Positions 9,203 to 52,806 of a stretch of DNA of 52,806 bases are shown here, piece by piece. The position numbers and the translations under genes are program-made. Position 1 is the first letter of the stretch, and each line of letters starts with the position of its first letter. This DNA is from Escherichia virus TH24. Under the pieces are notes generated by a model, which ran no database searches, was not told where the DNA came from, and worked only from the letters and a program-made list of their open reading frames with translations. The stretch is from the sequence record MT446398.1; one strand, given 5' to 3'.

Positions 9203-10651
9203 ATGTCAATCCCAATTTCTGATTTAGTTCAGGTTGATATCGCAATCTCCCCGAACGCCATTGCGACCGATGGTTTTGGGCCATTGCTCTTTATGAGCAA
9301 AGAGTTTGTACCGACCGTTGATGTATATCCGGTTCGTTCCTATACCAGTTTGAAAGAAGTTCTCGCAGACTTCCCTGGTGGTGAGATTGCTAAAGCTGCT
9401 ACCTCTTGGTACTCGCAGAAGCCAACTCCGAAGACTTTCCTGGTTGGTGCTATCAAGTACGATACTTTGACTCCAGCAACTCCTGCCACTGTTACTGCTG
9501 CAACTGCTGCTGTATTGGCAACCATTAAGCTGGAAACTGCTGCAACCATGCAGTTAAGTGTTAGCGGTGTTCAGTATGTTACTGACCCGATTGATTTCTC
9601 TGCTGCTGCTGACTTCGAAGAAGTTGCAACTCTAGTAACTACTGCACTATCTTCTGTTGGTGCTGGCGTAACTGTTACCCAGGAAGCTGGCAAGTTCAAG
9701 CTGACCACTTCTGCAACTGGCATCAACGCAACTATCAGCAACGTTGGTGGTAAAGTTGGTGAAGTGTTGAAGCTGCAATCTTCTGACAGTGCAGTTATTG
9801 TTGCTGGTAAGAACGAGCTATCCATCTCTTCCGACCTGTCTAATATTGCAGACGCTCCATTCAACTTCTTCTATGTAGGCCTTGACCGCCAGTATCGTGG
9901 CAAAACCTCTCCAGTAGACAACCAAATGTCTGTGGCGAAGTGGTGTGAAGCATCCAGCAAAGTATTTGGCTGGGGTGATAACGACAAGAACATTCTTATC
10001 AACGGCACTGATAACAGCTTCCGTCGTGCTAAGAACCAGAACCTGCGTAACACTCTGTGTGTTTACGATGCTTCTGCGAATGGTGATGAATATCCGGAAA
10101 TTTCTATCCTGGGTCGTGCATCAACTGTTAACTTTAACGTTGCAAACTCTGTTCTTATTCTGGCATACAAGAAAGGTCCAGGTATCGCCACTGCTGACCT
10201 GTCTTCTGGTCAGGTAAGTGCGCTGCTTTCTTGTGGTGGTAACGCATTCATTTCTGTTGCTGGCAACGTAATGTTCTACAACGGTCGTATGGCTGACGGC
10301 ACATGGTTCGACTCCGTACAAGGTGTTGAATGGCTGACTCAGAAAGTTCGACTGAACGTGTTCAACTTGTTCTACACTTCCACTACCAAGATTCCTTGGA
10401 CGGACACTGGTGTAGCAATGGTTAACCAGCAAGTAACTCTGGCGCTTGAACTCGCTAAGACTAACGGCCTCATTGCCCCTGGCTTTGATAACGAAGGTGT
10501 CTTCTATCCAGAAGGCTACAAAGTTATCTCTACTCCGTTAGAACTCTTGCAGTCGCAGAAGGGTGAACGTATTTGGGAAGGTACTTCCTTTATTGCTATC
10601 GGTTCCGGTGCAATCCAGGGTGCTGTAATCTCTGGCAACTTCATTCAGTAA
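9203..10651 (+). CDS. Tail sheath protein (putative)
   Basis: 482 aa, immediately upstream of tube, chaperone and tape-measure genes. Confidence 0.55.
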   Translation: MSIPISDLVQVDIAISPNAIATDGFGPLLFMSKEFVPTVDVYPVRSYTSLKEVLADFPGGEIAKAATSWYSQKPTPKTFLVGAIKYDTLTPATPATVTAATAAVLATIKLETAATMQLSVSGVQYVTDPIDFSAAADFEEVATLVTTALSSVGAGVTVTQEAGKFKLTTSATGINATISNVGGKVGEVLKLQSSDSAVIVAGKNELSISSDLSNIADAPFNFFYVGLDRQYRGKTSPVDNQMSVAKWCEASSKVFGWGDNDKNILINGTDNSFRRAKNQNLRNTLCVYDASANGDEYPEISILGRASTVNFNVANSVLILAYKKGPGIATADLSSGQVSALLSCGGNAFISVAGNVMFYNGRMADGTWFDSVQGVEWLTQKVRLNVFNLFYTSTTKIPWTDTGVAMVNQQVTLALELAKTNGLIAPGFDNEGVFYPEGYKVISTPLELLQSQKGERIWEGTSFIAIGSGAIQGAVISGNFIQ

Positions 10652-11589: not shown

Positions 11590-11765
11590 CTCAGAAGTTC
11601 CCGGAAATAAAATACTTCCTGCACCGTCCTGTAATAGAGGACAGTTCTCTCTGTTCTCTTAAAGAACTCTCGGACGGGACCTACTCTATTATGGATTTGT
11701 TAACTTTCCACGCAATACTTGATTTGCGTAATGAACTAAAACCTAAAGAAGAAGACAATGGCTAA
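11487..11765 (+). CDS. Tail assembly chaperone -1 frameshift extension
   Basis: The -1 frame has TGA at 11484-11486, then stays open 93 codons from the T_TTT_TTC heptamer to TAA 11763-11765, spanning the apparent intergenic gap and overlapping the next ATG. Confidence 0.5.
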   Translation, partial: FFQARARTQRTQTIGGGGSIQNGRAEEFESGNDLTQKFPEIKYFLHRPVIEDSSLCSLKELSDGTYSIMDLLTFHAILDLRNELKPKEEDNG

Positions 11766-14700
11766 GAACTTAAAAGATTTAATGAAGCTATCCGAGGCCG
11801 AACTAATCGGCATGGGTGCTCAGTACGGTCTGTCCTTCAATCCTGGTATGCGCAAACGAGATATGGCCCAGCAACTTGAATCGAGTGCTGCGTCAGGTTG
11901 GATGGAAACAAATTCACAGCTTTTGGGCGAACCAGATTCCCAGATGTATGAGGATGAAACTTCATACGGGACTTCTGATATGATTTCAGATGCAGCACAT
12001 GTAGCACAGATGATTTCTGGCGCTGGGCTGGCTGAAACATTCCATGCTGCAATGAACGGACCAGGACACCATGTAGAAGCAGTTCACGCATACATGGAAC
12101 AACTTGGTGTATCCACTGATGATGTTTGGATGCACATGCCTAAAGCCAACCCCAACAAGCCGGAAGGTCATTGGGGAATGCTTAACTCGTACATGCGAGA
12201 TACTCTTGCAGGTCATCAAGATATAATGCCTGAACTTGCCGGACACTACACCGGTAATATTATGGATGAATATTCCACAAACCGTGGAGATATTGCCAAG
12301 TCATTTGGTTATCTTGCTCACATGTATGTTGACCGTGAACAATACGACAACCCAGACCGCTATGCACGAGATGTTTATCGTGTAGCCAAACGTTTAGAAT
12401 CAGAATTACCGCAAAACTTCCGAGAAGTTGCTGCCGTATCTGCAATGAATGTAGGAAATAAGTCGGGGCCAAAACTTTCATACATGGATTCGTTGCCTCA
12501 ACTTGGCTCTGAATCTGTTGTTGGTGGGATTCAGCATCCCCGTCAACCTCTTAACGCATCTGGTTTACCTCTTGGTTCGTTTGGTGGCGGCATTAAGGCT
12601 GAATATTCTTTATCTGCATCCTTATCTGGTTCTCCAGGTTGGTCTGATGCAAGCAAAACGCTCTACCAAGATGTTTCTGGCGTAGTTAAATCTGCGGCAA
12701 AGGTTTATTCTGGTGGTGCTGAAAGAGGAATGAATGCATATCGCACTCAATCTTCTGACAGAGATTTAATCCTGGACTCTGCTTCTCGTTATGCAGACAT
12801 TGCAGATGTTCGTTCCGGTTACGATAACCTTAAGAAAGATATTGGTGACGACCCTCGATACTCTGGTTCATCTATTCGTGGCGTTCTTGAGAATGCTCAC
12901 CAATATAATGAGGCAGAAGTCGCTCGAACATTCGACCCTGCTGAACGTTTAAGGAATACTGGACCTGTAGAACTGAGTCCCTCTACAGAGTTTCTTGCAC
13001 AACTTGATTCTCCAACAAGTTGGAACTCTGCTCGCGCCCGTCGCGAGAGCATTGCTATATCTAATTTGGACTCTGCTCCACAACCAGCTCCGCAAGAAGG
13101 TCCAATCCGTTATCACAACATGGAACAGGGCACTCAGGAATGGTTAGACTTCCGCAAGCAATATGACATTACTGGCTCAACTGTCGGTTCATTTCTTGGT
13201 AACAATGAATATACTCGACCTTGGGCTGCAATGGTTGATAAAATTGGCCTACAACGCGGAAAGGGGCCAAGTGAATTTACCCAACGAATGTTCGAAGCAG
13301 GTCATCGGACGGAAGAAGTTGCTCGTAACCGTGTCGCCAAAGAGTTTGGATTCGACATTGAGCAAGCTGGCGCAATAACAAATGACAATTATCCGTCGTT
13401 CATGTATTCCCCAGATGGCCTTATCGGTGATGACGCGATTTGGGAACACAAGAACCCTGAAAGGGCTAAGAAGTTTTCTAACCTATCTGCTGGTGAGCAT
13501 AAGGATTACCTCGACCAAATTCAATTTGGTATGCTTGTATCTGGCCGTAGTCGTGCATTGTTCTCTCAGACAATCGGAGACAAGACGGTATCGGAATGGA
13601 TTGAGAAAGACGAGGGATGGTACGAACGCAACAAAGATAAGATTGATTCTACTATTGGTCGTCTTAATGCTGGTCGAGAGTTTGTTGAAGCTAATTCAGA
13701 CTTGTCCAATGATGATTTAATCAAAGGTGCTCGTGCTGCAATGACTGGCGATGGCATCTGGAAGGATGTTAAGCAGAAGTCAACGCGTGGTTACTCTGCC
13801 GCTGCTGGTACAGCCGATGACCCATTCATAGGCAACCGTACCAGTGTTGGAGTTGGTGAAGCCACAGCCTCTGCCGTAGGCTCTGACAGCACAACTGGCA
13901 ATGACCTGATGGCAGTATCTGTCAAGAAAGGTATCCTCGCTGCTCAGGAAGAAAACAAGCTGCGCGGACAAGATGCCGACTTCGGGGACAATGGTTGTCG
14001 TGGCGGTGGTGGCGGCTTCTGGGACACCTTCGATGCTAGTAGTTATGGCATTGGTGGAGGTGGTTCCGGTGGCGGTGGCGGTCGTGGTTGGAATACTGGT
14101 GGCAGCTTCTCAGATGACTTCGGTCGTGCTGGTGGCGCATTGGCTGCTGGCGTAGCTGGCGGTAGCATAGGCTCACTATCCAATGGTGCAATGAATGCCC
14201 TCATGATGACTCCGTGGGGACGTGTGGCGGGTATGGCTATCGGTGCTACCCAGATTGGTAACGAGGCGCTCGAAGGTCTGAACGATTTCTACGGAAACTC
14301 TTTAGACGCTGGTGTCAATAACCCTAACGAATATTCTTCCATGTCACAGGGCTTGGAGATGTTAGGGCTTAATCAGCAACAAGCTGGCCGACTCAATCGA
14401 ACCACACATAGTGCCTATAACACCCTCCTAAATGGCGACCCTAGTGGCGCTGTCAACATCGTTCAAGGAACCCGTGGTCTTATCACCATTGGCGACATTC
14501 GTGCGGCACAGGGCGACCCTGTAGCCTTAGCGCGGGTAATGCGTGAACGTGGTCAGGAGCGGGGCTGGAGTCAGGCTCGTATCGCTGGGGCTATGGAGAT
14601 GGCAGGTCTGGATGGCATGGCTCGCGCCTATGACCGCACAGATTACAGCGTGAACGAGGCTCAGGAGAACGTAAGCCGTGGAGCCAGCTCACAGTATGCC

Positions 14701-15435
14701 GATGGTATTGCACAGCTAGGAATAGCGCAGACGGAGCGTGCTGGGGTGCTGCCAGGATACGCAGTCCCGCAAGCTGCAATATCCTACGGGAGTTCATTTA
14801 TCGAAGCAGGTGGAGATGCGGCCAGAGTAGCGCGTACAGCGTCAAATGGTTTAGCTGATACTACCAGAACGGTATATGACTTTATCGCAGGAGAAGAGTC
14901 AGGGAACCGCGATTTGAACGCAGATGGTTCGGTGGTTACATCTCCGACTGGTGCCAAAGGTCGTATGCAGGTTCTTGATTCAACTTCCCGTGACCCAGGA
15001 TTCGGCGTTAAACCTGCACGTGATAACTCACTGGAAGAGCGTGCTCGCGTTGGTCGTGACTACTACGATGCAATGCTCAAGCGTTATAATGGTGACGCTG
15101 AGAAGGCTATGGCGGCGTATACGGATGGTGCTGGAACTGTTGATGATGCTATCAACAAACACGGAACCGACTGGCTCAATGCTGTTCCTCTACAGGCACA
15201 GAACCGCGTCAAGAAGTACCGTGAATGGGCTTCTCAGGGCGATTCTATTGCAGAAGGTGCAACTGGCTTCACCAGAAATGGACTGTCTTATGGTCAGACA
15301 CAGGCCACTGTAGTTAACGTTGAAGTCAAAGCTACTGTGAACAATAAGCAAGCGTCTGCAACCGTGTCAACTCCGAACGGTCAAACTGTTACCCAAACAA
15401 TCAACATGGGTAATGGTGCAATGGAACGTAGATAA
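11758..15435 (+). CDS. Tape-measure-position multidomain virion protein with YqaJ-like nuclease and lytic transglycosylase domains
   Basis: 1225 aa. EQGTQEWLDFRKQYDITGS...SPDGLIGDDAIWEHK...YLDQIQFGMLVSG (PD-(D/E)XK YqaJ-like, ~13120-13700); Gly-rich stretch; C-terminal GEESGNRD...GAKGRMQV...AAYTDG (SLT-like, ~14880-15250). Confidence 0.7.
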   Translation: MAKNLKDLMKLSEAELIGMGAQYGLSFNPGMRKRDMAQQLESSAASGWMETNSQLLGEPDSQMYEDETSYGTSDMISDAAHVAQMISGAGLAETFHAAMNGPGHHVEAVHAYMEQLGVSTDDVWMHMPKANPNKPEGHWGMLNSYMRDTLAGHQDIMPELAGHYTGNIMDEYSTNRGDIAKSFGYLAHMYVDREQYDNPDRYARDVYRVAKRLESELPQNFREVAAVSAMNVGNKSGPKLSYMDSLPQLGSESVVGGIQHPRQPLNASGLPLGSFGGGIKAEYSLSASLSGSPGWSDASKTLYQDVSGVVKSAAKVYSGGAERGMNAYRTQSSDRDLILDSASRYADIADVRSGYDNLKKDIGDDPRYSGSSIRGVLENAHQYNEAEVARTFDPAERLRNTGPVELSPSTEFLAQLDSPTSWNSARARRESIAISNLDSAPQPAPQEGPIRYHNMEQGTQEWLDFRKQYDITGSTVGSFLGNNEYTRPWAAMVDKIGLQRGKGPSEFTQRMFEAGHRTEEVARNRVAKEFGFDIEQAGAITNDNYPSFMYSPDGLIGDDAIWEHKNPERAKKFSNLSAGEHKDYLDQIQFGMLVSGRSRALFSQTIGDKTVSEWIEKDEGWYERNKDKIDSTIGRLNAGREFVEANSDLSNDDLIKGARAAMTGDGIWKDVKQKSTRGYSAAAGTADDPFIGNRTSVGVGEATASAVGSDSTTGNDLMAVSVKKGILAAQEENKLRGQDADFGDNGCRGGGGGFWDTFDASSYGIGGGGSGGGGGRGWNTGGSFSDDFGRAGGALAAGVAGGSIGSLSNGAMNALMMTPWGRVAGMAIGATQIGNEALEGLNDFYGNSLDAGVNNPNEYSSMSQGLEMLGLNQQQAGRLNRTTHSAYNTLLNGDPSGAVNIVQGTRGLITIGDIRAAQGDPVALARVMRERGQERGWSQARIAGAMEMAGLDGMARAYDRTDYSVNEAQENVSRGASSQYADGIAQLGIAQTERAGVLPGYAVPQAAISYGSSFIEAGGDAARVARTASNGLADTTRTVYDFIAGEESGNRDLNADGSVVTSPTGAKGRMQVLDSTSRDPGFGVKPARDNSLEERARVGRDYYDAMLKRYNGDAEKAMAAYTDGAGTVDDAINKHGTDWLNAVPLQAQNRVKKYREWASQGDSIAEGATGFTRNGLSYGQTQATVVNVEVKATVNNKQASATVSTPNGQTVTQTINMGNGAMERR

Positions 15436-18629: not shown

Positions 18630-19000
18630 TGGCTGGAAACTTACTATTAGATTCTAACCACGATATTATTATTGGTCGTGGTGCAACCAGGGTTGGTGGT
18701 GTAGAAGAAGTTGCTCAAATAGTTAAGTGCAGATTACTGACGGTGTTCGGAGAATGGAAACATGACCCGTCCACTGGTCTTCCTTGGTTTGAGGGAATCT
18801 TCACTAAGACTGTTCGAACTGCTGACATTGAGGCAGCTATTGCCAACGTCATTCGAAGCACTCCTGGTGTTCAACAACTTATCTCTATAAATATTGATGC
18901 TGATTTCCGTGAGCGTGAAGTAAGAATTTCATTCATTGCTATCTCCGATTATGGGAATCTTGAGGATTACTTAACATGGCAACAATCCAGTACGGCGTGA
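18629..19000 (+). CDS. Baseplate wedge protein (gpW/gp25-like, putative)
   Basis: 123 aa, TAATG coupling, position between spike and gpJ-like genes. Confidence 0.5.
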   Translation: MAGNLLLDSNHDIIIGRGATRVGGVEEVAQIVKCRLLTVFGEWKHDPSTGLPWFEGIFTKTVRTADIEAAIANVIRSTPGVQQLISINIDADFREREVRISFIAISDYGNLEDYLTWQQSSTA

Positions 19001-20130
19001 CTGAAAACGGGTTCGTACAGAAGCCTGTTCAAGAAATCGTGTCGCACATTAATAGCAGATTCCTTAGCGTGTTTGGTGCCAACTTCGACATTAGTCCAGA
19101 AGGCCCAGATGGTCAGGTTATAGGAATCATATCAGAAGAAATTTCCAAGTGTTGGCAACAGGCTGAAATGGTGTTCAATGCCTATCGTCCTGGTGCAATG
19201 CAGAAGATTGGTCTGGACAACATCTGCGAACTAACCTTCACTAAACGGCTGGTCGACTGGCCTTCTCGTGTTGGTGTTCGTTGTGCTGGTCAGTCCGGCA
19301 CTCTTGTTCCTGCTGGCTCTATTGTCAGTGATGGGACAATGGATTTCGAAACACAGTATGATTGTGTCATTCCAGGAACTGTTACGGCAGTGGCAACTGA
19401 GACTGGCGAATACTATATTGCTGCCAACACTGTTAATAAAATCAATACACCAGTCGCAGGTTGGGAATCAGTTAACAACCCAGAGATTGGTCAAACAGGT
19501 GTGGATTATGAGTCTGACCCAGCACTTCGTACTCGCCGTGACAGGACTACTGCGCACAGCGGTTCGGCCTTTGTTGAAGCTATTTACGCTGCACTCGCTG
19601 ACCTTAATCTATCTTACCTTCGTATTCGTGATAATGATACCGGCGCTCCTATTGGGACTCAGCCTTCGGGTACAGTCTTTGTTGTCGTAGAGGGTGGAAC
19701 AGAAGACGAAATTGCTCGTCGAATCTACTCTTCCAAAACGGGCGGTGTCCCAACTCATGGGACTACATCTGTGTCTATTTATGACAGTAAAGGTTATCCA
19801 CACGAAGTTAAGTTCAGCCGTCCAGAAGATGAAATCATTTATGTAGCTGGTACATTCAAGCGTCGCCCTGGTTCTAACATTAGTTCCAATGATGCTGCCC
19901 GTCAGTTGCAAACGGCTATGATGGATTACATCAACTCCCTGAACCCAGGTGATTCTGTTATCTGGTCAGAATGTTTCAAGCCTATTATGGATGCCACCAA
20001 CGGTGTTCAGGTTGACTCATTGTTCATTGGTACTTCTGCGAGTCCTGCTGGAATTGCTACAATCGAACTGGACATTGATAAGAAAGCGGAAGCTACAACT
20101 GCATCTGTAATTTTCACTGAAACACCATAA
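18976..20130 (+). CDS. Baseplate J-like protein
   Basis: 384 aa, GAGGA RBS; gene order V-W-J-I as in P2/Mu-like baseplates. Confidence 0.6.
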   Translation: MATIQYGVTENGFVQKPVQEIVSHINSRFLSVFGANFDISPEGPDGQVIGIISEEISKCWQQAEMVFNAYRPGAMQKIGLDNICELTFTKRLVDWPSRVGVRCAGQSGTLVPAGSIVSDGTMDFETQYDCVIPGTVTAVATETGEYYIAANTVNKINTPVAGWESVNNPEIGQTGVDYESDPALRTRRDRTTAHSGSAFVEAIYAALADLNLSYLRIRDNDTGAPIGTQPSGTVFVVVEGGTEDEIARRIYSSKTGGVPTHGTTSVSIYDSKGYPHEVKFSRPEDEIIYVAGTFKRRPGSNISSNDAARQLQTAMMDYINSLNPGDSVIWSECFKPIMDATNGVQVDSLFIGTSASPAGIATIELDIDKKAEATTASVIFTETP

Positions 20131-27278: not shown

Positions 27279-27300
27279 CGATTAAATGGGAGAAGAGATT

Positions 27301-27325
27301 CGATGCGTTAGCGTCGTTTCTCTTT
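27301..27325 (+). terminator. Rho-independent terminator after nrdB
   Basis: CGATGC-gtta-GCGTCG stem-loop followed by TTTCTCTTT. Confidence 0.5.
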
Positions 27326-27533
27326 GAGCTAGAATAAAATAAGTAAGTTTCCAATATTACTTATTCCCAATATTGCTACAATATTAAGAGTAATATTAGG
27401 AATGCGTAAAGTTCAAAACCAAATGGTACATGGTCGGTCAACTGTATCTAGCCGGAATTTGTTCGAACAGAAGTCCGACTATGTTATAAAATTTTTATAT
27501 AATTTTTTTTTTAATTTAAATATTGTTACAGAA

Positions 27534-27580
27534 TTAATGAGACTAGAATTGTTACGATATTAACGAGACTAGAATTGTGG
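27534..27580 (+). repeat. Tandem direct repeat (TAAYGAGACTAGAATTGT x2) beside an AT-rich tract; candidate early promoters or origin
   Basis: Two copies 26 bp apart, each with a TTGTTA...TAGAAT arrangement; preceded by a ~40-bp A/T tract (27488-27525). Confidence 0.45.
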
Positions 27581-27769
27581 CAATATTATAATTTTATTTT
27601 TGGGCCAGCGGGGAGGGGAAGCCCAACGTCCTATCGGACTTAAATACGGTCCCTACCCCAACTTTTTCCTGTAGCCTATCGGCTTTCAAACAACTCCAAG
27701 TTAGGCGCTTCGCTTATGAGTCAAGGTCAAAGTCTCCGTGCTGTTGTATCAATGGCACAGGTTTGTGGT

Positions 27770-27784
27770 ATTAGTTGGACGTGA
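27770..27784 (+). promoter_or_regulatory. Variant of the conserved ATTAGTTGGATGTGA motif upstream of the RNAP gene
   Basis: ATTAGTTGGACGTGA, one mismatch to the core, 77 nt upstream of the RNAP ATG; a TATAAT hexamer lies at 27806-27811. Confidence 0.3.
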
Positions 27785-27860
27785 ATTGTGTAATGGCTAC
27801 GCTATTATAATCCGTTTCATTCAAATCATACACAATCTTGGAGACTTACAAATGACTACT

Positions 27861-29792
27861 ATCACTACTCAAACTATCAAATCTGTTGTTCCTGCTATCA
27901 CTGCTCTGGTATACCGTGCCAAAGAGAAGCAGAACTATATGCAGCCTCAGACTTGTGCTATTGCTGCCTTAGCCATATTCAAGATGATGACGTCTTTCAC
28001 GCGTGATGACGTTATTCCGGCTATCTCGATGGTTGAACTGGCTTCTGCTTCCATTGCTGATGCCAACCGCTACAACAACGACTTAAAGTCAATGCACTAT
28101 GTTGACCCAGCTATCAACCTGATTGGTCTGGCTAAACACTTCGGTTTCATCACCATGAACGAGGACAAATCGTTCCAGATGACTGATGCATGGGTTGAAC
28201 TGGTTACAACCAAAGATACCTCAGTTCCATTCACTGAGCGTGTAACAAATGAATCTCGTCGTAAGCCTTTCGTTAAAGGTGGCAAAGTTAAGCCATCCAA
28301 GACTCTGAAAGCTGCGATTGAATTCCTGCAAGATACTGAATATCACGTTGATGCAACAATGGTTAAGGTTATCTCTTCCATGTTAGAACAACGTACATTT
28401 GGTGGCTTACAGATGCCAGAAGCAATCCAGACTGAACTCCATGTTTGGAACAATGCTGTAGCAATGGTTGGTCAGGACACTCTGTTCTCTGACTACTTTG
28501 CTGATAACCGTGGTCGTCTGTATCATGTAGCATGTGCTGGTCCTAACCCACAATCATCTGACTTTGCTCGTTGCCTGTATTCCCACAATGTTGAGAACAC
28601 TGTGAGCAAGTTTAATGCTGATGGTTCAACAACTCTGGCATACAACATGTTCATGCTTGAGCTGGAAGATATCGCTGGTGGAGACTGGACTTCTGCAAAA
28701 CGTTTAACTTATGTTGCTCAGAATCCAGCTGGTTCACTTGCTCGCATGTTGAATATGCCTAAAGGTGAGCGTCCTTCTAAGCCATTCACTTATGTTCGTC
28801 TGGCTCTGGATTGGTTCAAGTTTGAGACTACAGGTGAGTGCGATTCTCGTGTAGGCTTTGGCTTAGATGCTAAATGTTCTGGTACTCAATACTTGGCATT
28901 CATTGCTGGTAATATGGAGATGGCTCGTGCAACAGGTCTGGTTGATTCTGAGACTAAAGCATCTGACCCATACCAGTTATCTCTTCGTGAACTGTTGAAG
29001 TTGCTTGACCGTTCTTCAATGAAACCATCCGCTGAAATTATGGATGAATTCTTGAATCCGAAAGCTGGTCGTAAGTTTATCAAAACTCCATACATGGCTA
29101 TCCAATATGGTGGTGGTAAAGCTGCACTAACTGGTTCTTCTGATTTCATCGCATACATGACAGAAGCTCTCCAGATTCCTATGGAGAAAGCTGATGCATT
29201 TGCTGAACTTTGTGTAGAAGCAATCCATAACGCATTGGGTGCTAAGATTAACATGTTCATCGAGAAAGCTGCTGATGCTGCATTTGCTCGTTGTGTTGAA
29301 CTCAACAAAGAGTACATCACATATAAGCACACTGATGGCCAAGTTGTAATGAAGCCTTGCTTCCCATCTCGTGATGTTTGTGATGCGTTCAGCATTCGTG
29401 TTGACTCTCAAACTCGTGTCATCTTTGGTCAGATTCAGGAGAATAAGCCTTGGACCATTCGTGAGTCCAATCCAACTAAGGAAGAATTCAAGCGTACTTT
29501 CGTTGTTAACTACATTCAAGGTATTGACGCATTGGTTGCTCGTACTGTTGCAGTCAAAGCTAAAGAAGCTGGTCTTCGTGGCTTTACTTCAATTCACGAT
29601 TGCTTCCGTTGCTGCTTGGCTGATGCTCCTAAAATGATGGAAGTGATTCGTTCTGCTTATATTGAAATCTTTGTTCATAATAATCAGTTTGAATCTTTGT
29701 CTAAGCAACTTGGTGGCATCAACATGTACCATGAGAACATCGTAACAGAAGAGCTTCTGATGAGCGAACACGCTTACTATTTCTGTCAATAA
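27861..29792 (+). CDS. Single-subunit (T7-like) DNA-dependent RNA polymerase, compact form
   Basis: GFGLDAKCSGTQ (motif A Asp), RKFIKTPYMAIQYGGG (motif B), FTSIHDCF (motif C Asp). ATG 27861 with GGAGA RBS; 643 aa versus 883 in T7. Confidence 0.8.
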   Translation: MTTQTIKSVVPAITALVYRAKEKQNYMQPQTCAIAALAIFKMMTSFTRDDVIPAISMVELASASIADANRYNNDLKSMHYVDPAINLIGLAKHFGFITMNEDKSFQMTDAWVELVTTKDTSVPFTERVTNESRRKPFVKGGKVKPSKTLKAAIEFLQDTEYHVDATMVKVISSMLEQRTFGGLQMPEAIQTELHVWNNAVAMVGQDTLFSDYFADNRGRLYHVACAGPNPQSSDFARCLYSHNVENTVSKFNADGSTTLAYNMFMLELEDIAGGDWTSAKRLTYVAQNPAGSLARMLNMPKGERPSKPFTYVRLALDWFKFETTGECDSRVGFGLDAKCSGTQYLAFIAGNMEMARATGLVDSETKASDPYQLSLRELLKLLDRSSMKPSAEIMDEFLNPKAGRKFIKTPYMAIQYGGGKAALTGSSDFIAYMTEALQIPMEKADAFAELCVEAIHNALGAKINMFIEKAADAAFARCVELNKEYITYKHTDGQVVMKPCFPSRDVCDAFSIRVDSQTRVIFGQIQENKPWTIRESNPTKEEFKRTFVVNYIQGIDALVARTVAVKAKEAGLRGFTSIHDCFRCCLADAPKMMEVIRSAYIEIFVHNNQFESLSKQLGGINMYHENIVTEELLMSEHAYYFCQ

Positions 29793-29799
29793 GAGAATC

Positions 29800-29843
29800 A
29801 GGGCTGTCATCGAAAGGTGATGGCCCTTTCTTTATTCTTTATT
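29800..29843 (+). terminator. Rho-independent terminator after RNAP gene
   Basis: AGGGC(tgt)CATC-gaaaggt-GATGGCCCT followed by TTCTTTATTCTTTATT. Confidence 0.5.
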
Positions 29844-29859
29844 AATTAAATCCTTTAAT

Positions 29860-30570
29860 TCCCAATATTCAAGCAATATTGCTGCATGTAATATTGTTTC
29901 AATATTCGACATTAGTTGGATGTGAAGTAACAGAATACGGAGAAATATTCCGCATGTCATGTTGAAATCATTCTAGAAACATTTCAGCATGTCAACTAAA
30001 CACACAGTGTTGTAATGATGTGGCAATCATTGAACTCCCTGTCTTTGGCCGGACAAAGTTCCAGCAACCATGTGTGAAGTAGGATTATCATTCGAAACTG
30101 TTCTTCAACTAAAGCATGACCAATTGTTCCGATGGTTGTCGTCGTCCTATTATCAAGGCCCACCCACAAGCCGGGATTATCATAGACAAGTTGGAACTTT
30201 TGGACATGCTTCTTTCTTTCAATCAGAATTCGAAAGAAGAGAAGAGTCGGAGCAAAGCCTCTCGTTTTCACACAGAAGCCGCCCCGATTTTGAGCAACAA
30301 ATATTGTGACAATATTGTCGCAGTATGGCATGTAAATATTGCTACAAATTGGCATGTTAGAATGTGGCAGAATTGTTAGAGGACTAATCACCTCGAAGAT
30401 ACAATTGTCTACCAATCCGGCATGTTAATTTTGTAACAGTATTTGTGCCAATTTCGCATGTAATAGCTGTATCAGTATTGACCCAATATTCTTGCAACCC
30501 GCATGAATACTGGCTTCCAGCCAAGCGAAGGCTTTATCATCGCATGTAAATATTGTGACAATATTGGGAT
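29860..30570. repeat. Cluster of palindromic CAATATTG / GCATGTAAATATTG motifs (operator- or iteron-like array)
   Basis: At least ten copies of (C)AATATT(G), several as GCATGTAAATATTG[C/T][T/G]ACAA[T/A]ATTGG, within ~700 bp lacking a convincing ORF; further copies at 27337-27590. Confidence 0.45.
29909..29927 (+). promoter_or_regulatory. Candidate phage-RNAP promoter (motif ACATTAGTTGGATGTGAAG)
   Basis: Perfect copy of the recurring 17-bp motif, directly after the RNAP terminator. Confidence 0.4.
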
Positions 30571-31065
30571 AAAACCCTTTATTTAGTTAGTTTTATTATG
30601 CTGTACATGGTCGGTTTTCCGTACCTGTTGCGCCACTTCTTGATGTGCCAAATACATTCCAAGATAGGAGCAAACCTGTAATTAATGATGCATGTTTGAT
30701 TGTGACTAAATTCGTCTATTTGGCAGATGAATTGGTTGCAATTAAGCATGTCCATTTATCATTAGTTGCATGTGAATAAGACCAAATCTCTGTAAATTCT
30801 GCTGAAATTGTGTGACAGATTTTAGAGAGATTATGTCTCCAAGCTAATCATTGTAGTTTTCGGCACTTAATGTGTCACATATATAGCCTGTGAAAAACGT
30901 GTGGTTTATTGCTGGATTGCAACGCGCCCACCAGACTAGGAAGTCCATGATGGCGGCACACACAGGAATACTATATAACTCCCTACAACTTTAAGGTGGA
31001 TTAAGGTAATACAGGACCTCCACAATCGTTCTGTAGGGAGTTTTCTTTTAACTTTGGAGAATAAA

Positions 31066-33518: not shown

Positions 33519-33537
33519 AACATTAGTTGGATGTGAG
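33519..33537 (+). promoter_or_regulatory. Candidate phage-RNAP promoter (motif ACATTAGTTGGATGTGAGAG)
   Basis: Perfect motif copy ~75 nt upstream of the 33610 ORF. Confidence 0.4.
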
Positions 33538-51743: not shown

Positions 51744-52196
51744 ATGTCTTGTATGACCCAAGTTGTTGCAGTTAAACGAGTACACCCTAATGCGAAATTA
51801 CCTGTGTATGCTACAGCTGGCGCTGCTGCTGCTGATGTTTGTACTGTATCCGATACCACTGTTGTTATCAATCCCGGCTCTTCTGTTGTTGTCGATACTG
51901 GCCTCCAGTTCGAAGTACCAATTGGATACGAACTCAAAGTGCATAGCCGTTCTGGTCACGGCTTTAAGTCTGGTATTCGCCTTGCAAACTGCACAGGCAT
52001 TCTGGATTCCGACTATCGCGGTAATCTTATGGTTAAGCTGCACAACGACTCGGACACAGCCTTTGTTATTCAACCAGGCGAACGTGTTTGTCAAGTGCAA
52101 GTTAGTAAAGCTACTCAACACCATTTCGTTGAAGTTGACCACTTAAATTCCACTGTTCGTGGTGAAGGTGGGTTTGGTTCAACTGGACGAGTTTAG
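51744..52196 (+). CDS. dut: dUTPase
   Basis: All five dUTPase motifs including SRSG, GILDSDYRG and RGEGGFGSTG. Confidence 0.9.
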   Translation: MSCMTQVVAVKRVHPNAKLPVYATAGAAAADVCTVSDTTVVINPGSSVVVDTGLQFEVPIGYELKVHSRSGHGFKSGIRLANCTGILDSDYRGNLMVKLHNDSDTAFVIQPGERVCQVQVSKATQHHFVEVDHLNSTVRGEGGFGSTGRV

Positions 52197-52225
52197 TAAT
52201 TAGTAACTATTTGGAACCTATCTGA

Positions 52226-52555
52226 ATGAAACTGTCCTCACCTGTTATTGTAAATAATCGCAAAGTCAAGTTTGCATATTTGAAATCCACCGTCACTTCA
52301 ACTGGCGGTGGTACTTATCTCACCCGTGCACTTGCAACGCGCAATGAAACAGGTGCGGATGTTATCGTTTTCATGCTTCCTCGTGGTGAAAATACAATCA
52401 AGAACGTCGAACGTATCAAGCGTGGGCGCGAAGATTTAATGTCGGCTGTAAAGCCGCTGATACTGCCATTTAAGATTGTGGTGGTTGTTGGTTCTACCCA
52501 GCAGTATCTTGAAGATTTCTTTAAAGATATGGATTGGAGCGATATTAAATATTAA
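52226..52555 (+). CDS. Hypothetical protein (repeat copy of 451-780)
   Basis: Identical 109-aa translation. Confidence 0.5.
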   Translation: MKLSSPVIVNNRKVKFAYLKSTVTSTGGGTYLTRALATRNETGADVIVFMLPRGENTIKNVERIKRGREDLMSAVKPLILPFKIVVVVGSTQQYLEDFFKDMDWSDIKY

Positions 52556-52609
52556 GCGGCACGCATAATAGGGAGGCTATCTGGCCTCCTATCTTATTCG
52601 GAGTCGCTT

Positions 52610-52795
52610 ATGCGCACAATTCAATGTAGTAACTGCCATTACGAAGTGGCAGAGGATGATTTTATCACCCAACAATGTCCTATCTGTGATTCATTCATGC
52701 CGCTAAATCGGCTCATTTTAAAAGCTGATTCTAGTTTGGGCAACATCATCCGCATCAATCCCGTGCAACCTCAGCCATTAGTGGATTGTGATTAA
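52610..52795 (+). CDS. Small zinc-ribbon protein (repeat copy of 835-1020, Thr to Pro variant)
   Basis: Identical apart from NPVQPQPL versus NPVQTQPL. Confidence 0.5.
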   Translation: MRTIQCSNCHYEVAEDDFITQQCPICDSFMPLNRLILKADSSLGNIIRINPVQPQPLVDCD

Positions 52796-52806
52796 AACCA
52801 AAGAGA

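Follow-up and report, generated by a model that had tools for sequence, protein, structure and literature searches.

A compact T7-type RNA polymerase of the Chaseviridae in Escherichia virus TH24, and candidate phage promoters in the non-coding gap downstream of its gene

The 52,806-nt sequence record MT446398.1 of Escherichia virus TH24 (hereafter the window, i.e., the whole stretch of DNA that was analyzed) carries a myovirus structural module with genes for the tail sheath (9203–10651; PHROG 205, E = 1e-92), the baseplate wedge (18976–20130), portal, capsid, and terminase. The presence of the sheath and baseplate wedge genes bears out the first-pass annotation, in which the window was taken to be a contractile-tail genome. 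ATG-initiated open reading frames (ORFs) on the + strand account for 85% of the window. The genome was assembled in collapsed, circularly closed form; its unique length comes to 51,775 bp, with the repeat described below in addition.

A gene for a single-subunit (T7-type) RNA polymerase (RNAP) occupies 27852–29792 (+) and encodes a protein of 646 amino acids (72.3 kDa) that is orthologous to phiEcoM-GJ1 gp1. The ATG at 27852 is preceded by GGAG (…cttGGAGacttacaaATG), and the N-terminus common to RNAP homologs is consistent with this start. The length of ~640 aa given earlier was essentially right; position 27861, from which the gene had been read, is an ATC codon located 9 nt inside it. The product matches Pfam RNA_pol (PF00940) over residues 329–620 (66.1 bits; cut-off 22), PHROG 414 "RNA polymerase" (E = 7e-94), and, in a profile comparison, T7 RNAP (E = 4e-16); hhalign pairs residues 154–622 with T7 residues 318–855 (Prob 97.9). 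Motifs A, B, and C of the T7 family, which had been recognized by eye, are confirmed by a 49-sequence family alignment in which the residues of all of them are invariant: Asp339 in motif A (T7 Asp537), Arg407, Lys411, Tyr419, and Gly420 in motif B (RxxxKxxxxxxxYG; T7 Arg627, Lys631, Tyr639, and Gly640), and His582 and Asp583 in motif C (T7 His811 and Asp812). The same invariance holds for Asp218, Arg220, and Arg222 of the T/DxxGR motif (T7 Asp421, Arg423, and Arg425). An AF2 model (pLDDT 91.3, pTM 0.85) has the right-hand palm/fingers/thumb fold of T7 and mitochondrial RNAPs, and contains in the fingers a specificity-loop-like β-hairpin (strands within 506–537) that aligns with the T7 739–770 region. 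The sequence of this loop is conserved within each subfamily and differs between subfamilies, and its function is presumably promoter specificity. The gene product is thus classified by sequence and model as a T7-type single-subunit RNAP with a complete palm and fingers core, all four motifs, and predicted polymerase activity.

The nucleotide sequence of the 2.7-kb RNAP region is 95.6–95.7% identical to those of TH29 and MLP1 and 92.8% identical to that of phiEcoM-GJ1, and the RNAP itself shares 99.4% of its residues with that of TH29 and 95% with phiEcoM-GJ1 gp1. The flanks of the region are collinear with PYps23T and GJ1, and the order nrdB, RNAP, terminator, non-coding gap, and small ORFs is common to Chaseviridae relatives, as is the structural module, which is the same as in Carltongylesvirus and other Chaseviridae. 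A myovirus structural module combined with a single-subunit RNAP in a 52–56 kb genome coded almost wholly on one strand characterizes the Chaseviridae and is found here; judged by these comparisons, the window is a Carltongylesvirus genome (Cleopatravirinae, Chaseviridae). A T7-type RNAP in phiEcoM-GJ1-like phages goes back to Jamalludeen et al. (2008), as cited in later accounts of these phages and of the Chaseviridae (PMC12842549, PMC6266442, PMC6872899), and the RNAP of ST32 likewise has 646 aa (PMC6266442). The RNAPs of phiEcoM-GJ1, TH29, MLP1, ST32, PYps23T, Y2, PM1, and Myduc are the same protein as that of TH24, with nothing substantive differing. The small T7-type RNAP is therefore a Chaseviridae signature that was correctly observed and already known: that these small myoviruses have a T7-like RNAP has been textbook knowledge since 2008 and is a founding criterion of the family, and as a discovery the TH24 gene matters little.

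The domain map of the chasevirus RNAP is new here. T7 RNAP has 883 aa, 237 more than the TH24 enzyme, and, as Asp218 aligns with T7 Asp421, about 203 of these 237 residues are missing from the region before the DxxGR motif and the palm; the profile alignments therefore agree with the earlier view of a deficit of ~240 aa, mostly N-terminal to motif A. What is missing, according to these alignments, is the counterpart of the N-terminal domain, part of the thumb, and T7 residues 588–622, an insertion in the fingers. A reduced N-terminal module (residues 1–153; 27852–28310, +) replaces T7 residues 1–317. This basic module of ~153 aa has a winged-helix-like core, with helices at 6–24, 32–46, 57–74, and 87–96, followed by a β-hairpin at 100–110 and a conserved basic loop at about 134–149 (RRKPFVKGGKVKPSK). 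In hhalign it has no sequence match to T7 1–317, and the T7-like N-terminal promoter-binding domain of ~300 aa, with its AT-rich recognition loop, subdomain H, and refolding region, has no detectable counterpart. The module was also considered as a widespread or stand-alone domain, and this was rejected: only 26 clusters among 1.84 billion proteins match it, nearly all of them consisting of RNAPs of this clade. The end of the N-terminal domain and a shortened thumb (residues about 154–208; 28311–28475, +) align with T7 318–411, T7 carrying an insertion of ~35–40 aa relative to this RNAP family, and the thumb here is ~40 aa shorter than in T7. The core formed by palm and fingers (residues about 209–646; 28476–29789, +) aligns with T7 412–855 (hhalign, Prob 97.9) and holds the invariant columns, i.e., DxxGR at 218–222 and the residues of motifs A, B, and C, together with the hairpin at ~506–541 and a C-terminal YYFCQ. 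The fold, the four motifs, the specificity-loop hairpin, and the aromatic C-terminus are shared with the RNAP of T7 (Autographiviridae; PDB 1cez, 1qln, 3e2e), whereas identity over the core is only 21%.

A 12-bp stem containing 6 GC pairs, with a T-run after it (29800–29827, +; ΔG −21.9 kcal/mol, z −4.7), forms a predicted intrinsic terminator directly downstream of the RNAP gene, and the annotation of phage SA91KD has a terminator at the corresponding position. Upstream, a terminator-like hairpin with a T-run (27301–27316, +) lies within a segment (27285–27330) of ΔG −19.4 kcal/mol and z −3.7. The gene had been described as bracketed by a terminator on each side; this holds for the strong downstream terminator, whereas the upstream hairpin, although present, lies just past the nrdB stop codon and 535 nt before the RNAP ATG, and so would end the preceding gene rather than form a tight bracket. 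By these signals, the RNAP gene is a self-contained transcription unit closed by a strong intrinsic terminator. A weak σ70-like promoter is predicted at 27560–27589 (+; TTAACG-18-TATTAT, 9 of 12 matches), and blast maps it to the homologous "putative host sigma70 promoter" annotated at GJ1 364–393; the first RNAP mRNA probably originates at this site. The GC-richer leader (27595–27740) is not unusually structured (z 0.4), and no tRNA or known RNA family was found in the 5′ region or anywhere else in the window. Downstream of the terminator, ~1.2 kb without convincing ORFs (29830–31050) is followed by a series of small ORFs that begins at 31054. The RNAP gene does precede the early genes, as first described; this is because it is gene 1 on the family genome map and no other substantial gene lies in the terminal repeat (PMC8762354, PMC12842549).

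The direct terminal repeat of TH24, collapsed to one copy in the assembly, is predicted by homology at 27637–30244. The Y2 and PM1 records have identical ends of 2608 and 2665 bp, respectively, and their boundaries, like those assigned to Mangalitsa by PhageTerm, map to 27637 and 30244 of the window. Alternatively, the experimentally determined 2339-bp repeat of PYps23T (PMC8762354) maps to 27780–29920. With either set of boundaries, the repeat of 2.1–2.6 kb contains no substantial gene other than that for the RNAP; the repeat characteristic of the Chaseviridae measures 2.3–3.2 kb and includes the RNAP gene. By homology with these relatives, virion DNA would carry two copies of the RNAP gene. 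If the repeat starts at 27637, the σ70-like site lies outside it, and only the gene copy at the right end would have this site.

Two kinds of repeated motif occur around the RNAP gene. Within the gap, 11 GCATGT sites, each on the + strand, form an array that spans 29884–30773; so many oriented sites in 890 bp have a Poisson P of about 5e-14, and elsewhere in the window GCATGT occurs at chance frequency. Many of the sites are followed by 6–7 AT-rich nucleotides and a GTGACA-like element; the sequence at 30542 is GCATGTAAATATTGTGACA. The same oriented array occupies the same gap in four other genera, represented by Y2, Myduc, PM1, and Mangalitsa, with 9–14 copies each and 0–1 on the opposite strand, and the DNA flanking it is poorly or not alignable between these genera. 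In Nefertitivirinae, the same gap contains GTATGA (seven copies) or GTGTGA (eight copies). The second, longer motif, TTAGTTGSAYGTGAR, is found at 27771–27785 (67 nt upstream of the RNAP ATG), 29912, 30762 (TTAGTTGCATGTGAA), 33523, and 40158. All five copies are on the + strand and intergenic, compared with 0.03 expected; their positions are conserved in all genera examined, and two of them correspond to the "putative phage promoters" of phiEcoM-GJ1. According to the ICTV profile, Chaseviridae promoters "have not yet been identified" (PMC12842549), and the literature searched contains no assay or purification of any chasevirus RNAP and no transcript mapping, other transcription data, or experimentally defined promoters for chaseviruses. 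The conserved, strand-specific array with its lineage-specific hexamers is new here and is a candidate for the promoters of the family. A reading of the GCATGT array as tandem σ70 promoters was rejected as the main one, given that σ70-like sites are not enriched in the gap (one weak + strand site; total no higher than in shuffled sequences) and that inspection found no −10 element at a constant spacing from GTGACA or GCATGT. If GCATGT is a promoter element, nearly all copies are crowded into a single 0.9-kb cluster, an unusual arrangement for a T7-like program.

It is very probable that the gene encodes the phage's own T7-type RNAP, the phiEcoM-GJ1 gp1 ortholog and Chaseviridae signature, and that it acts broadly as follows. 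After injection of the DNA by the contractile tail, host RNAP would make the first RNAP mRNA from the weak upstream σ70-type promoter. The phage enzyme would then take over rightward transcription of the genome, starting at phage promoters concentrated in the 1.2-kb gap downstream of its own gene; proposed as such are the array of GCATGT-N6-7-GTGACA elements and the long motif TTAGTTGSAYGTGAR, including its copies at 33523 and 40158. As the AT-rich-loop domain of T7 is absent, the specificity loop and the small basic N-terminal module would have to recognize the promoter, possibly with a further cofactor. T7 offers a parallel in that its RNAP gene is also early and is directly followed by phage promoters (ϕ1.1A and ϕ1.1B, right after gene 1), whereas the chasevirus gene belongs to a contractile-tailed phage and lies inside a terminal repeat of 2–3 kb.

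The GCATGT array and TTAGTTGSAYGTGAR sites might instead be terminal-repeat or packaging signals, replication-origin iterons, or operators for a regulator, with the RNAP promoters located elsewhere or too degenerate to be seen; this is a serious possibility, if not the favored one. The published genome ends of PYps23T fall exactly inside two long-motif copies, the repeat ending at the junction TTAGTTGGA/YGTGAA in both flanking copies, so the motif could be a terminase or processing site. Moreover, in Mangalitsa and Myduc the array is located at the right repeat boundary or inside it, and the palindrome AATATT is co-enriched (11 copies), which fits a dimeric DNA-binding protein. In T7, arrays of short repeats adjoin the terminal repeat. 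In Y2, PM1, Mangalitsa, and Myduc, however, the start of the repeat is a homologous site outside the long motif, and the end of the repeat also falls outside this motif, with mutually dissimilar end sequences. All array copies are oriented with transcription, the long-motif copies at 33523 and 40158 are in intergenic gaps far from the repeat, and the hexamer changes along with the polymerase subfamily, all of which argues for promoters.

Under the promoter reading, the chasevirus enzyme could be the smallest autonomous single-chain RNAP of the T7 family, using its winged-helix-like module of ~150 aa and a bipartite promoter (GCATGT, 6–7 nt, GTGACA; GTATGA or GTGTGA in the sister subfamily), of which ~10 stacked copies would serve the whole genome. 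This full proposal is put forward tentatively and is rather unlikely to hold in every part; if true, it would identify the promoters of the family and reveal a new way in which single-subunit RNAPs recognize promoters. An autonomous enzyme that recognizes the short motif would be a useful minimal model for such recognition and possibly a compact, orthogonal transcription tool.

A comparably doubtful alternative is that the compact RNAP depends on a phage or host factor for specificity or melting, because the T7 promoter-binding domain is missing and residues 1–153 do not match it. Such factors serve N4 RNAPII (gp1, gp2) and mitochondrial RNAPs (Mtf1, TFB2M), and the factor independence of T7 has been argued to be the exception among single-subunit RNAPs (PMC4496689). 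In size, the single 646-aa chain equals the cofactor-dependent, two-subunit "minimal" N4 RNAPII (269 + 404 = 673 aa; PMC4496689). Against this, the specificity-loop hairpin of the RNAP is of full length, and its N-terminal module is basic and conserved and includes a β-hairpin. No homolog of N4 gp1 or gp2 was found in the window by tblastn (no match below E = 1; remote homologs may escape this search), and no conserved gene adjoins the RNAP, the small ORF that follows it in GJ1, PYps23T, and Mangalitsa being absent from TH24. N4 RNAPII (gp15 and gp16; PDB 6dt7) is a heterodimer, unlike the one uninterrupted ORF of TH24, and acts on single-stranded or gp2-bound templates at an AT-rich promoter (−7 to +2). 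No sequence similarity to gp15 was found for the chasevirus RNAP or for its N-terminal module. The mitochondrial enzymes Rpo41 (yeast) and POLRMT (human) are about twice as long, carry PPR and N-terminal extensions, and depend on initiation factors.

It is hardly conceivable that the start has been placed wrongly and that the gene in fact encodes a polymerase of full T7 size: the maximal ORF (27738–29792, +) does reach back to a GTG at 27738 (684 aa), and longer products are annotated in P0001 (704 aa), Mangalitsa (705 aa), and PVN03 (844 aa), but this ORF is still 199 aa below the length of T7 RNAP, an in-frame stop codon lies directly before 27738, the extension has no conserved sequence and overlaps both the TTAGTTG motif, which is conserved, and the genome end of PYps23T, and more than 80 independent homologs of about 604–670 aa have the same N-terminus. 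The short length is kept in the great majority of 113 RNAP homologs, down to 35% identity, which confirms the compactness noted at first; the exceptions are longer calls and truncated fragments.

The maximal open reading frame containing the single-subunit RNA polymerase (RNAP) gene spans 27738–29792 on the + strand, and the ATG at 27852 is supported as its start by a preceding GGAG Shine–Dalgarno sequence and by an N-terminus common to dozens of homologues. The start at 27861 in the first-pass annotation is a trivial error, an ATC codon three codons within the gene. The product (646 amino acids, 72.3 kDa) matches Pfam RNA_pol (66 bits; cut-off 22) and PHROG 414 ‘RNA polymerase’ (E 7e-94). T7-type motifs A, B, and C, which that annotation had recognized, are all found and are invariant in a 49-sequence family alignment, as is the T/DxxGR motif: D218, R220, and R222 of T/DxxGR (T7 D421, R423, and R425), the motif A aspartate D339 (T7 D537), R407, K411, Y419, and G420 of motif B (T7 R627, K631, Y639, and G640), and H582 and D583 of motif C (T7 H811 and D812). 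An AlphaFold model built with the family alignment as input is confident (pLDDT 91.3, pTM 0.85), and Foldseek matches it to T7 RNAP (E 6e-19). By every catalytic and fold measure, the protein belongs to the T7-type single-subunit RNAPs; it is the orthologue of Chaseviridae gp1.

In DNA, the RNAP region shares 95.6–95.7% identity with the Escherichia phages TH29 and MLP1, and 92.8% with Escherichia phage phiEcoM-GJ1 (GJ1); the RNAP protein shares 99.4% identity with that of TH29, 98% with its Yersinia PYps counterparts, and 95% with phiEcoM-GJ1 gp1. GenBank taxonomy assigns these phages to Chaseviridae, Cleopatravirinae, Carltongylesvirus. The genome has both a tail sheath gene (9203–10651; PHROG 205, E 1e-92) and a baseplate wedge gene (18976–20130), which bears out the earlier description of it as a contractile-tail genome. 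The phiEcoM-GJ1 genome paper of 2008 reportedly announced in its title a myovirus with a podovirus-like RNA polymerase. All later descriptions of the group restate this finding (PMC12842549, PMC6266442, PMC6872899, PMC8762354, PMC6989608). The compact T7-like RNAP in a contractile-tail genome is thus correct and already known; the remaining value lies in its domain map, in the RNAP gene as the apparent constituent of the terminal repeat, and in a candidate promoter array. As a separate observation, 11758–15435 (+) encodes a 1225-amino-acid virion structural protein (PHROG 19855), of which residues ~430–640 match RecE-like exonuclease families and residues ~980–1200 match lysozyme or lytic tail-fibre families.

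RNAP is 237 amino acids shorter than T7 RNAP, in agreement with the first estimate of ~240 for a protein of ~640 amino acids. The great majority of 113 homologues, with identities down to 35%, are ~604–670 amino acids long, the remainder comprising truncated fragments and longer calls; compact size is therefore characteristic of the clade. Residues 154–622 align to T7 residues 318–855, both in profile searches against PDB sequences and by hhalign against T7 RNAP (Prob 97.9). As had been proposed, most of the deficit in these profile alignments lies N-terminal to motif A, with ~164 amino acids in the N-terminal domain (RNAP 1–153 versus T7 1–317) and ~40 in the thumb (T7 326–411 versus RNAP roughly 162–208); a further ~34 correspond to the fingers insertion at T7 588–622 and are partly balanced by small local insertions. 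The palm, the remaining fingers, a specificity-loop-like β-hairpin (strands 506–537), and an aromatic C-terminus (YYFCQ, whereas T7 RNAP has FAFA) are kept.

The large T7-specific N-terminal domain is not present in RNAP, and neither the PDB profile search nor hhalign detects sequence similarity between RNAP 1–153 and T7 1–317. The module in its place, residues 1–153, is basic (pI 9.5 versus 6.2 for the entire protein) and contains a conserved loop, RRKPFVKGGKVKPSK, in which R136 is invariant. Searched as a profile against 1.84 billion representative proteins, this module matches only 26 clusters, and almost all of these are RNAPs of 600–760 amino acids from the same clade. RNAP is functionally similar to T7 RNAP, and its likeness to N4 RNAPII consists in size and N-terminal reduction. 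The ‘minimal’ N4 RNAPII has two subunits of 269 and 404 amino acids (PMC4496689), whereas the equally small RNAP here is one chain of 646 residues without recognisable N4-type cofactors. In Nefertitivirinae phages, the annotated RNAP coding sequences are longer (844 amino acids in Aeromonas phage PVN03 and 781 in Shewanella phage Spp001; same-clade metagenomic homologues, ~629), and similarity to the TH24 protein begins only at residue 68–128; these have either over-called starts or a lineage-specific N-terminal extension.

Positions 1–1031 recur at 51776–52806 with 99.9% identity, and the sequence is therefore a complete, circularly closed chasevirus assembly (unique length 51,775 bp) whose ends fall arbitrarily in the terminase region and in which the terminal repeat has been collapsed into a single copy. 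On the conventional Chaseviridae map RNAP is gene 1, consistent with its earlier placement before the early genes. The records of Erwinia phage Y2 and Pectobacterium phage PM1 have identical sequences of 2608 and 2665 bp, respectively, at both ends, PhageTerm repeats of ~3.2 kb are annotated in Mangalitsa and Myduc, and in PYps23T a repeat of 2339 bp was established by experiment (PMC8762354). Mapped to TH24, the Y2, PM1, and Mangalitsa boundaries correspond to 27637–30244 and those of PYps23T to 27780–29920. Judged from either mapped boundary set, the RNAP gene and its terminator are essentially the entire terminal repeat, so that each virion DNA should carry the RNAP gene at both ends.

A terminator had been described on each side of RNAP. 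The downstream one is a strong intrinsic terminator after the stop codon (29800–29827; 12-bp stem, dG −21.9 kcal/mol, z −4.7). The upstream hairpin (27301–27316; dG −19.4, z −3.7) is real, but belongs to the preceding nrdB and lies 535 nt ahead of the RNAP start. The sole σ70-like site upstream of RNAP, TTAACG-18-TATTAT at 27560–27589, is a weak prediction homologous to a site annotated in GJ1; it would fall a short way outside the repeat in its longer form and would thus stand in front of the right-end RNAP copy alone. It is overlapped by a direct repeat, GAGACTAGAATTGT, with two copies 26 nt apart (27539–27580, +). RNAP has an intact catalytic core, forms its own terminator-closed unit, and is conserved across the family. 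Its first mRNA would come from host RNAP, after which the phage enzyme would transcribe the + strand-coded genome.

The most informative new observation is an array of GCATGT, a candidate promoter array, in the 1.2-kb gap, poor in open reading frames, that separates the RNAP terminator from the first small open reading frame (29830–31050). Within 29884–30773 (890 bp), GCATGT occurs 11 times on the + strand and once on the − strand; its genome-wide frequency is that of chance, against which the local excess reaches Poisson P ~5e-14. Many copies are followed by 6–7 AT-rich nt and a GTGACA-like element, and we infer by analogy that the hexamer as upstream recognition element, an AT-rich spacer, and a segment starting with G would match how single-subunit RNAP promoters are laid out. 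Oriented GCATGT arrays occupy the equivalent gap in four other genera (Y2, 9 copies; PM1, 11; Mangalitsa, 12–14; Myduc, 13–14), in DNA that is poorly or not alignable between genera. In the sister subfamily Nefertitivirinae, whose RNAP is ~35% identical to that of TH24, the equivalent gap contains, on the coding strand only, seven GTATGA (Vibrio VPs20, Aeromonas PVN03) or eight GTGTGA (Shewanella Spp001). The specificity-loop sequence is conserved inside each subfamily and differs between Cleopatravirinae and Nefertitivirinae.

A 15-nt motif, TTAGTTGSAYGTGAR, has five copies in the window, all intergenic and on the + strand (0.03 expected), at 27771 (67 nt before the RNAP ATG), 29912, 30762, 33523, and 40158; two of them have counterparts annotated as ‘putative phage promoters’ in GJ1. 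σ70-like sites are not enriched in the downstream gap. Given the oriented arrays, the long motif, and this lack of σ70 enrichment, a cluster of phage-RNAP promoters is the best reading of the gap, with confidence about evenly balanced. In the ICTV profile, the promoters of chaseviruses ‘have not yet been identified’ (PMC12842549), and those of PP101 are computational predictions only (PMC6989608).

Alternatively, TTAGTTGSAYGTGAR and GCATGT may have a role other than that of promoters. In PYps23T, both published ends of the genome coincide exactly with the junction TTAGTTGGA/YGTGAA in the two TTAGTTGSAYGTGAR copies flanking the RNAP gene. This junction is possibly a terminase or processing site; it could also mark transcription start sites linked to end formation, or the ends might reflect a PCR or ligation chimera at the 15-bp homology. 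In Y2, PM1, Mangalitsa, and Myduc, the repeat begins at a different, mutually homologous site whose TH24 version is TATCG/GACTTAAATACGGTCCC.

AATATT/CAATATTG palindrome clusters flank the RNAP gene, with four copies at 27352–27400 and four at 29862–29910; AATATT is co-enriched in the downstream gap (11 copies overall), and Vibrio phage VPs20 has TAATTA(T) at the equivalent place. These clusters may be operators of a dimeric DNA-binding regulator also acting there. Chasevirus-like gene blocks adjoin integrase genes in the chromosomes of Hafnia alvei (NJFP02000002.1, 2778075–2800021) and Pseudomonas brenneri (CP122540.1, 3123141–3145039). Both run from baseplate or lysis genes to a compact RNAP (632–648 amino acids), a gap of ~1 kb, and small early open reading frames, an arrangement suggestive of temperate, integrating relatives, although the family is described as strictly lytic.
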